Positions 8,644-15,845 of a stretch of 15,845 bases of DNA are shown in pieces (position 1 is the first letter of the stretch; every line of letters starts with the position of its first letter). The DNA is taken from contig JANPEF010000104.1 in NCBI GenBank assembly GCA_031431875.1, positions 1-15,845 on the forward strand, given 5' to 3'. Source of the DNA: Candidatus Eiseniibacteriota bacterium (GTDB lineage Bacteria > Eisenbacteria > RBG-16-71-46 > DASYSL01). The position numbers and the translations under genes are program-made. The notes beneath the pieces were generated by a model, which saw nothing but the letters and a program-made list of their open reading frames with translations, did no database searches and was not told where the DNA came from.

Positions 8644-9081
8644 ATGAACCTTGAGCCACGCCCTTGCCATCACTGCGGCACCAGCATCGGGGACAGTCCG
8701 TACCGGATCGTCCTCCAGGGCTGGGCCGACGATCACGACCTGCCGCTGTGCCGGTCGTGCCAGTCATTGCGCCAGGCCGGGCAGCTGCCCGCCGACCTGC
8801 TGGTGCAGCAGTGGGTGTTCGCGCGCTCGGGGCCGAGCGCCGCGGGGAGTGAAGTCGAGCAGGTGATCGTGCGCCTCGAGTGCCTGGGCTGCGGCGATGT
8901 ACTGGCGGGGGCGGGGGCGGGGGCAGGGGCGGGGGCAGGCCCGGGACCCGCGGTCGAGTCGGGAGCGGTCGACGCGCGGCGCCTGCCCGACGGTTCGCTC
9001 ACCACGGAGTGTGCGCGCTGCCAGCGCACGAACCTGCTCGCGCGCCGCGGTCCGCAGATGGTCGCCGTCCGGTTGTGGTGA
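8644..9081 (+). CDS. Hypothetical zinc-binding protein with four CxxC motifs (145 aa)
   Basis: CHHC, CRSC, CLGC and CARC motifs, a GGAG SD, and its own promoter. It fills the gap between radC and the convergent Lon-N gene. Confidence 0.75.
   Translation: MNLEPRPCHHCGTSIGDSPYRIVLQGWADDHDLPLCRSCQSLRQAGQLPADLLVQQWVFARSGPSAAGSEVEQVIVRLECLGCGDVLAGAGAGAGAGAGPGPAVESGAVDARRLPDGSLTTECARCQRTNLLARRGPQMVAVRLW
8905..8940 (+). repeat. 6-bp microsatellite (GC[G/A]GGG)x6 encoding (AG)6
   Basis: GCGGGG GCGGGG GCGGGG GCAGGG GCGGGG GCAGGC. Confidence 0.9.
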
Positions 9082-12568: not shown

Positions 12569-12639
12569 GGCTAGAACCTCGGCGGACGGGGACCAGGGCT
12601 CGCAGGTGAGGCATTCGGACGGCGCAGCAGTGGAGCCAC

Positions 12640-12654
12640 CGGGTATCTTACCCG
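12640..12654. promoter_or_regulatory. Palindrome CGGGTA-TCT-TACCCG carrying overlapping -10 hexamers on both strands
   Basis: TATCTT (+, 12644-12649) lies 7 nt before the Nudix ATG. TAAGAT (-, 12650-12645) faces the phosphatase gene. Confidence 0.45.
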
Positions 12655-12656
12655 AC

Positions 12657-13142
12657 ATGACCCTCTGGCTCTACTGCCCGCACTGCGGCACCCCGCTCGA
12701 GCCCACCGGGACCTGCCCTGCGTGCGGTGATGGCCGGGTGCACCGCCGGCGCACCGCGCCCGCCGTAGCCATGGCTGTGGTCGAGGCCGGATGCGTCCTC
12801 CTCGTGCGCCGCAAGTACGAGCCGATGGTCGGGCACTGGGCACTGCCGGCGGGCTTCATCGAGGGAAACGAGGCGCCCGCGGCCACCGCCCGCCGGGAAG
12901 CCGCGGAGGAAACGGGACTCCTCATCCGCCCGACCGCGCTCCTGGGGGCATTTCCGGGCGGCGCGCCAGACGCGCGTGTCGTGCTCCTGGTCTATCGCGG
13001 CGTGGTCGAAGGCGGGGTGCTTGCTGCGGGGGATGACGCGAGCGACGCGGGGTTCTTTCCCCTCGACGCCCCGCCGGCACCCCTCGCTTACGGGCCCCAC
13101 CGGCGCGTGCTCGATCTCCTGCGGGTCGATCCCACGGGCTGA
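12657..13142 (+). CDS. Nudix hydrolase with an N-terminal zinc ribbon
   Basis: YCPHCG...CPACG, WALPAGF, the Nudix box GFIEGNEAPAATARREAAEETGL, and AGDDASDAGFF. ATG at 12657. Confidence 0.92.
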   Translation: MTLWLYCPHCGTPLEPTGTCPACGDGRVHRRRTAPAVAMAVVEAGCVLLVRRKYEPMVGHWALPAGFIEGNEAPAATARREAAEETGLLIRPTALLGAFPGGAPDARVVLLVYRGVVEGGVLAAGDDASDAGFFPLDAPPAPLAYGPHRRVLDLLRVDPTG

Positions 13143-13278
13143 GCGATTCCGCGGTCCATTCGCCGTGGCGTCCCGGAAAAGCAAAAATGAAGTCAAGTCA
13201 TTGCACCTCAATCGTTTCCGTTCGAATTCGACCGCTATCCGGGGCTTCGGGTTCGCCTGGATTGGGTGCTGAAATTTG

Positions 13279-13307
13279 TTGCAGCGCGGAACGGACGGTC
13301 CTACGCT
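13279..13307 (+). promoter_or_regulatory. Sigma70-like promoter TTGCAG-N17-TACGCT with an AT-rich upstream region
   Basis: Exact 17-nt spacer. The predicted start site (~13314) coincides with the beginning of the long hairpin. Confidence 0.55.
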
Positions 13308-13313
13308 CGCTCT

Positions 13314-13662
13314 CCAGCGGGCACAAGACGCACCGAAAAGATTTACCGGCTGAGTTCCGCAAATAGCGCGCAGACGATTCGCGCGACCGTGTGGAGGCCG
13401 CTGATTTTCGGTGTCACCCCGCGTCTCTTGTAATGCCCGCAGTTCGCGGGCGCTGGAGCCTGCTCCGGGGATGGACTTCGGGGGGAGCCACCCCGGACGG
13501 CTCTCGGTCTTCCCGCTCGATGGCCGCAGGCGTGACGAGTTCCGCGTCACGTCCTGCTGCCAGAGCGACATGGATGGAATACGGGTCCGCGAGACGGACC
13601 GACAGGACGCCGGTCCGGTTTGACTTCGGGGGGAGCCATTCCGGCCGGCGGCTTCGTTTTTC
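13314..13662 (+). ncRNA. Candidate multi-hairpin ncRNA or long structured leader; family unidentified
   Basis: Five consecutive helices: 13317-13440, 13456-13503, 13514-13567, 13584-13600 and 13608-13650. It ends in CTTCGTTTTT and contains no ORF with the host codon bias. Confidence 0.55.
13474..13638 (+). repeat. Two exact copies of the 17-mer GACTTCGGGGGGAGCCA (13474-13490 and 13622-13638)
   Basis: Read directly from the sequence. Each copy sits at the apex of a CCGG...CCGG stem. Confidence 0.95.
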
Positions 13663-13723
13663 GCCGTTTGCGGCCACCCAGCGCGCGTTCTGCGCGGACG
13701 CGCGATGACCTTCCGCGTACACT

Positions 13724-13749
13724 GCCTCCGACCCCACGGAGGCTTTTTT
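13724..13749 (+). terminator. Intrinsic-terminator-like hairpin containing the mqnD Shine-Dalgarno sequence
   Basis: GCCTCCG-ACCCCA-CGGAGGC-TTTTTT, then C-ATG. GGAGG at 13738-13742 is in the 3' arm. Confidence 0.65.
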
Positions 13750-13750
13750 C

Positions 13751-14626
13751 ATGTCCGACGCAACGACCACCATCGGCAGCACCGCGACCGACGCACCCGT
13801 TCTGCGCATCGGCCACAGCCCCGATCCCGATGACGCGTTCATGTTCTACGGCCTGGCGCACGGCGCGGTGAAGATCCGCAACTACCGGATCGAGCACGTG
13901 CTCGAGGACATCGAGTCGCTCAACCGCCGTGCCATCGCGCGCGACCTCGAGGTCACCGCGATCTCGGCGCACGCTTATCCGCGGATCGCCGACGCCTACC
14001 ACATCCTCGCCACCGGCGCGTCGATGGGCCGCGGCTATGGGCCGATCCTGGCGTCTCGTGTGCCCATGGCGATCGCCGACCTGCGCGGCAAGCGCGTCGC
14101 GATCCCCGGCCCGTGGACCACGGCCGCGCTCCTGACGTCGATCTACGTCGAAGGCCACGTCCCGGTCGAGGTCATGTTCGACCAGGTGCCGCAGGCAATC
14201 CTCTCGGGCGAGGTCGACGCGGGCGTGATCATCCACGAGGGCCAGCTCACCTACGGCGGCATGGGCCTGCACAAGATCGCCGACTACGGCGAGCTGTGGG
14301 CCGCCGAAACCGACGGCCTGCCGCTCCCGCTGGGCCTCGACGTCGTGCGCGCCGACCTGGGCCCCGAGCTCTGTCGCGAGATCAATCGCGGGCTGCGCGC
14401 CTCGATCGAGCACGCGCGTGCGAACCTCGAGCCGGCGATCGATTACGCGCTGACGTTCGGGCGCGGCCTCGACCGCGACCTGGGCAAGAAGTTCGTCGGC
14501 ATGTACGTGAGCGAGGACACCGTCGATATGGGCCAGCCGGGGCGCGCGGCGCTCCAGCTGCTGTTCGAGCGCGGCGCGGCAAAGGGCCTGATTCCGGCAG
14601 TGCCGGAGCTGGTCGTGATCGACTGA
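13751..14626 (+). CDS. mqnD: 1,4-dihydroxy-6-naphthoate synthase (MqnA/MqnD family, futalosine menaquinone pathway)
   Basis: GHSPDPDDAFMFYGL, DIESLN, GASMGRGYGP, PGPWTTA, IIHEGQLTY, LPLPLG and GMYV. Confidence 0.9.
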   Translation: MSDATTTIGSTATDAPVLRIGHSPDPDDAFMFYGLAHGAVKIRNYRIEHVLEDIESLNRRAIARDLEVTAISAHAYPRIADAYHILATGASMGRGYGPILASRVPMAIADLRGKRVAIPGPWTTAALLTSIYVEGHVPVEVMFDQVPQAILSGEVDAGVIIHEGQLTYGGMGLHKIADYGELWAAETDGLPLPLGLDVVRADLGPELCREINRGLRASIEHARANLEPAIDYALTFGRGLDRDLGKKFVGMYVSEDTVDMGQPGRAALQLLFERGAAKGLIPAVPELVVID

Positions 14627-14658
14627 TCACGGTGCCGCGGATCCGGGTCCACCCGCGC

Positions 14659-14687
14659 TTGACCACCTGGTGATCGAGCGCTAGGCT
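14659..14687 (+). promoter_or_regulatory. Sigma70-like promoter TTGACC-N17-TAGGCT
   Basis: 5/6 match at -35, exact 17-nt spacer and a TANNNT -10. Confidence 0.7.
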
Positions 14688-14693
14688 TCCTTC

Positions 14694-14764
14694 AGTTCAT
14701 CACCCCTGTCGCTTCGGCGCAGGGCGCGAGGCCGTCTCCGAAAGGGGGCGGCCTCTGCTTCGTT
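14694..14764 (+). ncRNA. Candidate ~70-nt small RNA: UUCG hairpin plus a GAAA terminator hairpin
   Basis: CCCTG-T-CGC-TTCG-GCG-CAGGG (14704-14724), then GAGGCCGTCTCC-GAAA-GGGGGCGGCCTC (14728-14755) followed by TGCTTCGTT. It begins about 7 nt after the -10. Confidence 0.55.
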
Positions 14765-14849: not shown

Positions 14850-15006
14850 GGGGCGCGCCTGCGCTTCGCGCGCATCTGGCGAAGGGCTGACTCCGGCGGC
14901 GACGGAATTCGTGATGCTGGATTAGGTTGTGAGAGTCTGAAGGGCAGCTGCGAGATCGATGAGCCAGCTGTGGCTGTCCCGGGGGGGGGCGCGCGAAGTG
15001 ACAGCT

Positions 15007-15696
15007 ATGACGTGGATTTTAGGCGTGGCTAGCCTGCTGTTCGCTTCCGGACAGGCTTGGGCCGCGGAACCTGGAAAGAGTTGCGGCGTCCGACTGTCTG
15101 TCTTGGAGGCATTCAACCTGACGGGTGATCCCGCCTACGTGCCACCGGCGCTGAACTCCCTTCTGGTGCGGACGCTGTCGGGCGAGTCGCACGGCGAGTT
15201 CATCGAGGCGAACAGCGGGATTGGCATTGGACGGGTTCGAGCCCGGAAGAACCCAATCCGATTGGCCGATCTAGGCGAGGGATGCAGCGATTCGATTTCC
15301 ATCGCGGTCGATCTGGAGCAGTCCTATTACGGAGTCCTGGCGGATCCAGGGAAGGCTGTCTCCGGATACGCAGCGCTCGGGATCTTGGGAGTAATTCTTG
15401 GGGATGGGGCGACGGGGGCGGCGCTAGTCCAGCTCCGTGCAATCGTACGATTCGGTGCCGACTCTGACTCCGTCGCGCTCACGTCTGTTGGACTACTGGA
15501 AGTTGATCTTGAGAAAGCGCCGCGACGTTTTGCGATGCGACGCGCGATGTCGAGGGCATTACACCAACTTGGGTATCGGATCTCGGAGGCGGTGGACCGA
15601 CGGCTAAAGCTGGGGCTCGAGCCGCGCAGTGTCTCAATGACGCCTGAAAAGTACTTCGAACTTCTGGACCGCGACGAAGGGCTGCCTGCGAAGTGA
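15007..15696 (+). CDS. Exported hypothetical protein with atypical codon usage (alternative start 14959)
   Basis: MTWILGVASLLFASGQAWA-AEP resembles a signal peptide with an AxA cleavage site. Many A/T-ending codons (TTA, CTA, GGA, ATT) contrast with the flanking genes. Confidence 0.65.
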   Translation: MTWILGVASLLFASGQAWAAEPGKSCGVRLSVLEAFNLTGDPAYVPPALNSLLVRTLSGESHGEFIEANSGIGIGRVRARKNPIRLADLGEGCSDSISIAVDLEQSYYGVLADPGKAVSGYAALGILGVILGDGATGAALVQLRAIVRFGADSDSVALTSVGLLEVDLEKAPRRFAMRRAMSRALHQLGYRISEAVDRRLKLGLEPRSVSMTPEKYFELLDRDEGLPAK

Positions 15697-15702
15697 GACT
15701 GA

Positions 15703-15845
15703 TCACTCCCCGATGATCTTCACCAGCACGCGCTTGTCGCGCATGCCGTCGAACTCGCCGTAGAAGATCTGCTCCCACGTCCCGAAGTCGAGCTTGCCCG
15801 CGGTGATCGCGACGACCACCTCGCGTCCCATGACCTGGCGGCGCA
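15703..15845 (-). CDS. yjbQ: YjbQ/UPF0047 secondary thiamine-phosphate synthase family protein, 3' part only
   Basis: Not in the ORF track because its start is outside the window. It reads [46 protein letters not shown]. Confidence 0.9.

Follow-up and report, generated by a model that had tools for sequence, protein, structure and literature searches.

In the window (the whole stretch of 15,845 nucleotides that was analysed), the 610-nt gap between a Nudix hydrolase gene and an mqnD-like gene contains a promoter-like pair of boxes, a 17-nt repeat and hairpins, and very likely holds a real structured RNA. The RNA gene is genuine, uncatalogued in Rfam and restricted to one clade, and its product is probably a stand-alone RNA that is transcribed from the plus strand and acts in trans. 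As for its function, we tentatively read it, from sequence, as a decoy of CsrA that would mimic the leader of a CsrA target. Table 1 compiles the positions of the features; hairpins A and B belong to the first copy of a duplicated module, and hairpins C and B' to the second. Gene calls in the genome of the window (G000) were made with a rough script, and its intergenic labels are therefore approximate.

Table 1. Features of the region between the Nudix and mqnD-like genes, as positions of the window.
Feature	Positions	Strand	Evidence and remarks
Nudix hydrolase gene	12657..13142	+	PF00293, E 7e-19; upstream neighbour of the RNA
Candidate promoter P1	13265..13307	+	A/T-rich upstream tract; -35 TTGCAG 13279-13284, 17-nt spacer, -10 TACGCT 13302-13307
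Non-coding RNA	13315..13661	+	About 345 nt; folding z -3.9, no conserved reading frame, RNA contigs
Conserved 5' motif AAA-R-M-UUU	13335..13361	+	31-35 nt downstream of the -10 box; a weak hairpin follows, its 7-nt loop ending in UU
Hairpin A, small, module 1	13435..13451	+	4 of 6 pairs changed on both sides (both modules pooled); fold
Hairpin B, long, bulged, module 1	13455..13503	+	Invariant tip UUC-GGGG-GGA 13477-13486, then pyrimidine tail; covariation
Optional insert hairpin	13514..13567	+	Window's sub-clade; z -5.3
CsrA-consensus site C-AUGGAU-G	13569..13576	+	56 nt ahead of the second tip; inferred binding
Hairpin C, small, module 2	13584..13600	+	Paralogue of A; alignment and folds
CsrB-like CAGGACG	13603-13609	+	Second such site
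Hairpin B', long, module 2	13608..13661	+	Helix 13608-13650, same tip 13625-13634, U-rich tail about 13652-13661
Putative -10 box TACACT of mqnD promoter P2	13718..13723	+	No consensus -35
Hairpin and U6 over the mqnD Shine-Dalgarno	13724..13749	+	Only terminator-like call in the region
mqnD-like menaquinone biosynthesis gene	13751..14626	+	PF02621, Pfam E 1.6e-71; downstream neighbour

As the preliminary description of this DNA had supposed, the RNA belongs to no known Rfam family: scans of the window, of the region alone and of 10 homologous loci gave no match near a gathering score, and the sole overlap, with Termite-flg, reached 18.8 bits of the 40 needed and lies downstream of the modules. 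The tmRNA, SRP and RNase P RNAs and a 6S candidate below threshold are all encoded elsewhere in the genome; this last one, a 6S-like RNA after a zapA-like gene (C140:26607-26790, L015), scored 31 bits against an Rfam cut-off of 46 and is probably a diverged 6S RNA. No conserved reading frame was found, the ORFs across the hairpin sharing neither start, stop nor length. No description of the RNA turned up in searches of the literature on the motif, on Eisenbacteria RNAs and on mqnD or futalosine regulation, although the supplements of motif catalogues could contain an entry that is missing from Rfam. The name mqnD comes from the preliminary description and from the protein family rather than from a specific model, an NCBIfam search having given no match.

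For the plus strand of the region (13314-13662), the predicted folding energy is -177.5 kcal/mol (z -3.9), and none of 100 shuffles was as good. The minus strand also folds well (z -3.4); since both strands score, the folding z alone gives no strand. An identical 17-mer occurs at 13474-13490 and at 13622-13638, 148 nt apart, as the preliminary description had pointed out, and a repeat of this length is beyond chance: no exact repeat in 300 dinucleotide shuffles exceeded 14 nt, and the longest one per shuffle was most often 8 nt. With up to two mismatches, the 17-mer has only two copies in the 3.75-Mb genome, both at this locus.

Read from 5' to 3', the locus consists of the promoter, the AAA-R-M-UUU motif, a variable domain, module 1, a variable linker and module 2. 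Each module is made of a small hairpin, a long bulged hairpin with the invariant UUCGGGGGGA tip, and a U-rich tail. The long hairpins B and B' are paralogous over their full length, with 53-76% identity within a locus, contrary to the preliminary description, which saw one apex on different lower stems; hairpin B is 80-100% identical to the window copy in the 12 homologues compared. Its four hairpins (B, the insert, C and B') are predicted much where it placed them, and it missed the small hairpin A, a conserved and covarying structure. The 124-nt rod that it drew in the 5' domain folds on its own (z -3.4, 2 of 200 shuffles) but is not conserved, and its 3' arm is the 5' arm of hairpin A; outside the two closest relatives, the identity of this domain falls to 48-67%, and its fold differs by lineage. 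The insert folds too, but it is optional: one homologue (L178) lacks it, and in other sub-clades a far shorter linker takes its place. One homologue (G003) has a single long hairpin and the others have two, so that the idea of a tandem array of paralogues holds as far as the duplication of the module goes, but a single promoter was found, ahead of the array. Homologous RNAs measure 215-358 nt, and the transcript would end either in the U-rich tail that follows hairpin B' or farther on, at the 13749 terminator. Two recurrent words were also seen: a GUUC(C/U)GC-type loop word in four hairpins of the window's sub-clade, optional ones included (13335-13361, 13439-13445, 13537-13545 and 13686-13696), and GA.TTC.G, the commonest gapped word of the variable parts (6 of 7 clusters).

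Selection on this structure is indicated by the pooled alignment of the modules, in which 92.5% of the cells are paired, against 36-65% in slid controls, and 14 of the 26 pairs have changed on both sides, which none of 500 shuffles matched; these figures are not probabilities, the structure having been drawn from the same, related sequences. The covariation spans genomes whose MqnD proteins are 80-96% identical. Together with the conservation and the RNA contigs described below, it supports the earlier proposal of a structured RNA with selection on its apex.

The tip itself is conserved in another manner. UUC-GGGG-GGA, with its U-G wobble and its run of exactly six G, is fixed in 34 of 34 copies, and the adjacent pair alternates between C-G and U-A. 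This invariance is circular for the first copies from metagenomes, which were selected by their sequence, but not for the genome copies or the 23 second copies, all of them exact, for which the search pattern had not selected. Several stem pairs are moreover invariant in sequence between the paralogous modules. Such recognition at the level of base identity is poorly explained by binding of CsrA, and it speaks for a different role, in which the long helix and its tip would be a platform for an unknown RNA-binding protein, for the anti-SD of the 30S subunit, for processing of the RNase III type or for a two-tier G-quadruplex built from two tips. We consider this role quite unlikely: no candidate protein was identified, and G003 has one long hairpin only.

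The distribution of the element is narrow. In a BLAST search of 61 related genomes, 10 matched and seven carry the element (G000-G005 and G007); further matches fell in the part before the promoter (G037 and contig C157 of G007), and those in G036 and G058 were rejected as coding-looking sequence. A 23-nt pattern retrieved 18 metagenome loci, of which all 18 have the first long hairpin in its context and 17 the second, one locus being cut off. A covariance model was built from 34 of 48 module copies after near-duplicates had been dropped. It matched in seven of the 102 genomes of the order, which all belong to two genera of the family of the window. In 151 genomes of the phylum, it gave no convincing match beyond four carriers; three genomes had weak matches of 22-26 bits, which were rejected since they have no module layout, one being a terminator between convergent genes. 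These model searches scored part of the first-look candidates (41 or 27 per genome) and may thus have missed diverged homologues.

Shorter patterns are less specific. The 17-nt pattern occurs at 120 or more loci in genome contigs, and among the matches listed five carry the element and the rest are unrelated. The 12-nt tip pattern is present in 55 of the 102 genomes of the order; 49 of its loci were folded, and the non-carrier ones were rejected as coding sequence, SD sites or unrelated hairpins. None of four matches in viral contigs is the element; two of them (L187 and L189) fold like the long hairpin, at 26 bits in pattern-selected sequence, and were taken as chance, in the case of L187 because it is antisense to the end of an ORF that, from its sequence, is RecA-like. 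One locus of another genome (L272, G092:C58:9341-9396) has a 44-nt direct repeat whose units bear the same 12-nt tip in a short hairpin, in another architecture that scores 13 bits against the covariance model.

On the MqnD tree, 18 carriers lie on one side of a branch and 23 non-carriers on the other (support 99/95), and in two genomes without the element (G006 and G009) a Nudix-like ORF, read by eye, extends right up to mqnD. Most simply, the element was gained once, by the common ancestor of the two genera. An element that interrupts an otherwise contiguous junction could also be a DNA-level relic such as a REP, a MITE or a palindromic transposon end, and both long hairpins end in U-rich tails, the second one in G007, with seven U after hairpin B', looking like a classical terminator, so that a pair of ordinary terminators, or a hidden peptide gene, might be considered as well. 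We hold these readings to be highly improbable and largely refuted, given that there are two copies per genome at one locus, which also disposes of the high-copy repeat raised in the preliminary description, that no match was found in 72,556 plasmids and 50,697 phages, that promoter and base pairs are conserved or covary, and that the ORFs have nothing in common.

The promoter ahead of the RNA, with the two boxes and the spacing given in the preliminary description, is a candidate sigma70-type promoter of its own, from which transcription is predicted to start at about 13314-13316. The pattern TTGY-N16/19-TAnnnT is present at all 22 homologous loci that reach far enough upstream, compared with 0.25% of random 110-nt genome windows. 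A consensus promoter scanner did not call P1, and its support comes from the conservation across loci and not from the scanner. Four columns of the 5' motif are invariant at 22 of 22 loci, and its weight matrix scores 38.5 bits at the locus against 18.9 for the next best position in the genome; a repressor operator was rejected, the genome having no second site.

Expression was looked for in three metatranscriptome runs from two studies, picked by the words that they share with positions 12600-14700. Each run yielded one RNA contig lying wholly on the element (13330-13579, 13331-13632 and 13336-13576). The contigs differ from the window by 13-25 letters and therefore come from relatives; in all three runs they start within about 20 nt of the predicted P1 start, and no listed RNA contig from the element reaches the promoter, the Nudix gene or mqnD. 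They hint at a discrete transcript, with the reservations that contigs carry neither strand nor level, that DNA carry-over is possible and that uncovered stretches do not amount to silence.

Three lines of evidence point to the G-rich strand, and plus-strand transcription is the favoured prediction: the promoter-like pattern of the plus strand is found at none of 23 loci on the minus strand, G-U cells outnumber A-C cells by 110 to 26 (20 of these 26 at one position), and the plus strand has the more stable fold in 20 of 21 cases. The preliminary description had offered, as one possibility, a minus-strand sRNA with C-rich anti-SD loops, and the same three observations go against it.

The adjacency to mqnD calls for a different explanation to be weighed. 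Directly ahead of the hairpin that buries the SD of mqnD, a TAnnnT box (TACACT, TACATT or TAGAGT) stands in 22 of the 23 loci that reach it, as counted with a search expression derived from these same sites, and it appears to belong to a separate mqnD promoter, P2. A transcript that starts 6-8 nt past this box would omit the 5' arm of the SD hairpin. In the window, the predicted cost of opening the SD is 13.5 kcal/mol in read-through RNA compared with 2.8 in the P2 transcript, and over 22 loci it is 4.9-16.7 compared with 2.3-6.4 kcal/mol, the order being reversed in one locus (L169). The SD hairpin may be an insulator or terminator that buries the SD in read-through RNA only. The SD (13735-13742) reads C-ACGGAG-G, a form of the CsrA consensus that also occurs in many carriers and may be incidental; SD sequences often fit that pattern.

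Because mqnD appears to have a -10 box of its own, the RNA is probably not its leader. As a cis-acting leader (an attenuator or a riboswitch), it would, while being transcribed, pair its tip with the C-rich 5' arm and loop of the SD hairpin and so open it, with a ligand or CsrA on the modules shifting the balance. We regard this as unlikely, although mqnD lies directly downstream in seven of seven genomes and in 15 of 18 metagenome loci (of the other three, two are cut off and one looks chimeric), in all 22 loci the tip octamer is able to pair with the SD-hairpin arm (-8.9 to -12.8 kcal/mol), and a tandem arrangement of modules upstream of a hairpin that buries an SD recalls riboswitches. The carriers, however, form one clade (18 of 41 MqnD rows) with one locus, so the linkage of the RNA with mqnD is a single inherited event, and in 12 loci mqnD leaders that lack the RNA pair with the tip about equally well, between -6.9 and -12.4 kcal/mol; of 842 leaders of the window's genome, 32% reach -9.2 or better. 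Furthermore, the last base of the tip shows no covariation with the SD-hairpin arm, the distance from tip to box ranges over 40-101 nt with module and SD hairpin never overlapping, and the RNA evidence, which consists of contigs only, includes none that bridges to mqnD. A riboswitch test found no expression platform that overlaps the conserved domain with a conserved alternative pairing. The chimeric-looking locus (L172) tracks another one (L181) until about 60 nt past the second tip, exactly at the expected mqnD -10 box, and continues as unrelated coding-like sequence; it is probably chimeric and, if real, would be the only copy away from mqnD.

The link to CsrA begins with the motif CA(N)GGANG, which had already caught attention in these sequences when its occurrences were counted. 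It occurs in 18 of the 21 full-length RNAs, against 4.0 expected from shuffles and 2 on the minus strand, and in six of the seven clusters formed at 72% identity. In 16 of the 21, it lies 56-68 nt ahead of a tip within poorly conserved sequence: ahead of module 2 in the window's sub-clade and in L169, and ahead of module 1 in the others, from which it appears to be a third component of the ancestral module. Several of the sites are textbook short hairpins, and an accessible ANGGAN-type site closed by C-G, as a Csr antagonist should have, is found in the same proportion of RNAs (18 of 21). The sites cost mostly 0.1-3.7 kcal/mol to open, some up to 7.4, and about 2-2.5 for the GGA of the window site that lies between the insert and hairpin C. 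The Nudix-mqnD gap is one of 11 intergenic strands, out of 2186, in which three CsrA motifs fall within 200 nt; here the mqnD SD counts as one of them.

Other counts are less favourable. Three further gapped words recur in at least 5 of the 7 clusters, and three of the 21 RNAs (those of G005, L173 and L176) have no consensus CsrA site, though G005 has two csrA genes. The total of GGA is 11 here against 9.0 expected and 6-15 per RNA, with no consistent excess, and most of them are paired. The best-conserved part of the RNA, the long helix with its tip, is off-canonical for CsrA, as the tip does not have the A of ANGGA, its GGA is paired and its G run takes 4.9 kcal/mol to open. The tip looks like a Shine-Dalgarno, but no start codon follows it; at several loci of the order that are not homologous (L243, L284, L285 and L289, for example), the tip 12-mer is found, SD-like, a few bases upstream of an ATG.

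The csrA gene is present in all seven carrier genomes and in 96 of the 102 genomes of the order, with two paralogues in the genome of the window; of the 96, seven only have a match to the model. FliW, the protein antagonist of CsrA, was found in four of the five genomes tested, Hfq in none of five, and flagellin (Flagellin_N) in none of five genomes of the family. In the genome of the window, a fliW-csrA pair adjoins the RNase P RNA gene, and the second csrA precedes a sensor/response-regulator-like cluster (C115:16876-17643 and C153:76745-77008; L208).

CsrA targets frequently combine a strong upstream site with another in the SD. On our tentative reading of the RNA as a decoy, each module would imitate the leader of a CsrA-repressed mRNA. 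CsrA is described as a dimer with two RNA-binding faces, a consensus site with an ANGGAN loop and many targets with two sites (PMC7652899); the exposed C-ANGGAN-G site would capture one face, and the other would be occupied by another GGA, either in the SD-like tip or at the base of the long helix. Synthesis of the RNA would draw CsrA off its mRNAs and lift translational repression, and mqnD would be a bystander with its own promoter, the SD hairpin keeping read-through from the RNA silent. The protein sponge mentioned in the preliminary description thereby acquires a named candidate, for which the positioned CsrA-consensus site is specific but indirect evidence. The wider claim, that this is a CsrA-sequestering family outside the Gammaproteobacteria, of an architecture unrelated to CsrB and RsmZ, which coexists with FliW where no flagellin gene was found, seems doubtful to us. 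Elsewhere in the genome, no canonical CsrB-like RNA was recognised among the eight GGA-densest intergenic stretches looked at. In one stretch (C91:26991-27535, minus strand), ahead of an NAD-synthetase-like gene, A(N)GGA motifs cluster upstream of a terminator-like hairpin; it could be another CsrA-binding RNA or a leader.

To our knowledge, RNA decoys of CsrA have been documented so far mainly in E. coli-like bacteria. The CsrB/C and RsmX/Y/Z RNAs bind and titrate CsrA, and BarA-UvrY or GacS-GacA drives their transcription. The RNA resembles CsrB/CsrC and RsmX/Y/Z as a stand-alone non-coding RNA with repeated elements and C-ANGGAN-G or CAGGANG sites (as given in PMC7652899) in a host that has csrA. 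It differs from CsrB/C, for which PMC6546359 reports 13-22 GGA motifs in loops and single strands, in having 0-3 consensus sites and no GGA excess, and from CsrB and RsmZ in that a long, G6-tipped helix makes up its conserved core and its hosts mostly have FliW. With so few sites, and no match of the CsrB/C and RsmX/Y/Z models of Rfam in the window or in 10 homologous loci, the RNA falls outside the CsrB/RsmZ family; it may still work as a Csr antagonist. In E. coli, McaS and GadY are base-pairing sRNAs bound by CsrA. SR1 of B. subtilis, whose pairing with its target ahrC is promoted by CsrA by the account of PMC6546359, is another. The present RNA shares with this group the few CsrA sites beside another conserved functional part; unlike them, it has duplicated modules, and neither a conserved mRNA target nor a conserved ORF was found for it.

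This likeness belongs to a further rival, the base-pairing RNA, in which the GGGG loops would seed pairing with C-rich sRNAs, as a sponge of the RosA/RsaI type, or with C-rich anti-SD leaders, activating their translation, and CsrA would be the chaperone in place of Hfq, which was not found. RsaI of S. aureus is reportedly a G-rich RNA sponge. Like RosA of B. subtilis, whose single-stranded G-rich regions are described as acting against C-rich sRNAs (PMC8216469), the RNA has two or more exposed G-rich stretches within 200-350 nt. Its GGGG loops are predicted to be unpaired with a probability of about 1.0 in most copies, the leaders of the window's genome are rich in C, with 78 runs of C6 to 28 of G6, and in 1470 leaders there are 13 copies of CTCCCCCCG where a Markov test expects 4.7. 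We nevertheless judge base pairing rather improbable. The longer complement TCCCCCCGA is not enriched (4 against 2.8); of 34 exact 11-nt complements in five other genomes, 30 were fetched, and none lies in a leader whose orthologue in the window's genome has a site; genomes without the RNA also have 4-5 such complements. Base pairing, moreover, leaves the conservation of the whole stem sequence unexplained, and the search for a conserved base-pairing target of the tip found none. A perfect 12-nt complement of the tip was seen 20 nt before the start of a LacI-type regulator (C147:33032, minus strand). In contrast to RosA and RsaI, the G runs cap long conserved helices instead of lying in extended single strands, there is no sequence relation, and no C-rich partner was identified. 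The reverse complement recalls 6C RNA of Actinobacteria in having two stem-loops with six C each (as described in PMC6486639), but the G-rich strand is favoured here, the loops are 80-150 nt apart, the phylum is another one and the 6C model of Rfam gave no match.

Our results add a well-supported and apparently expressed RNA family to Eisenbacteria, a phylum that, as far as we know, has no cultured member, although, in the genomes searched, the RNA has a narrow range, confined to two genera of a single family. None of the known families tested accounts for the invariant G6-tipped helix, which may be a recognition element of a new kind. If the proposed binding of CsrA is true, control of CsrA by RNA has an independent origin here and another design, in a lineage that has retained both FliW and CsrA and in which no flagellin gene was found. 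Eisenbacteria are reported to have low frequencies of the hag-repressing CsrA class, and their CsrA is predicted to be functionally unlike the B. subtilis type (PMC13443453). Joint control of CsrA by FliW and an sRNA in one species, which was described as undetermined in a 2020 review (PMC7652899), would then become directly testable.

Beyond the RNA locus, two plausible ORFs of the window, at 14959-15696 (245 aa) and 8644-9081 (145 aa), had no match in Pfam or NCBIfam, and an open frame tested at 15700-15840 had none in Pfam. This last segment is covered deeply, in all three runs, by RNA contigs from other organisms, and it is part of a widely conserved minus-strand gene that runs off the end of the window.
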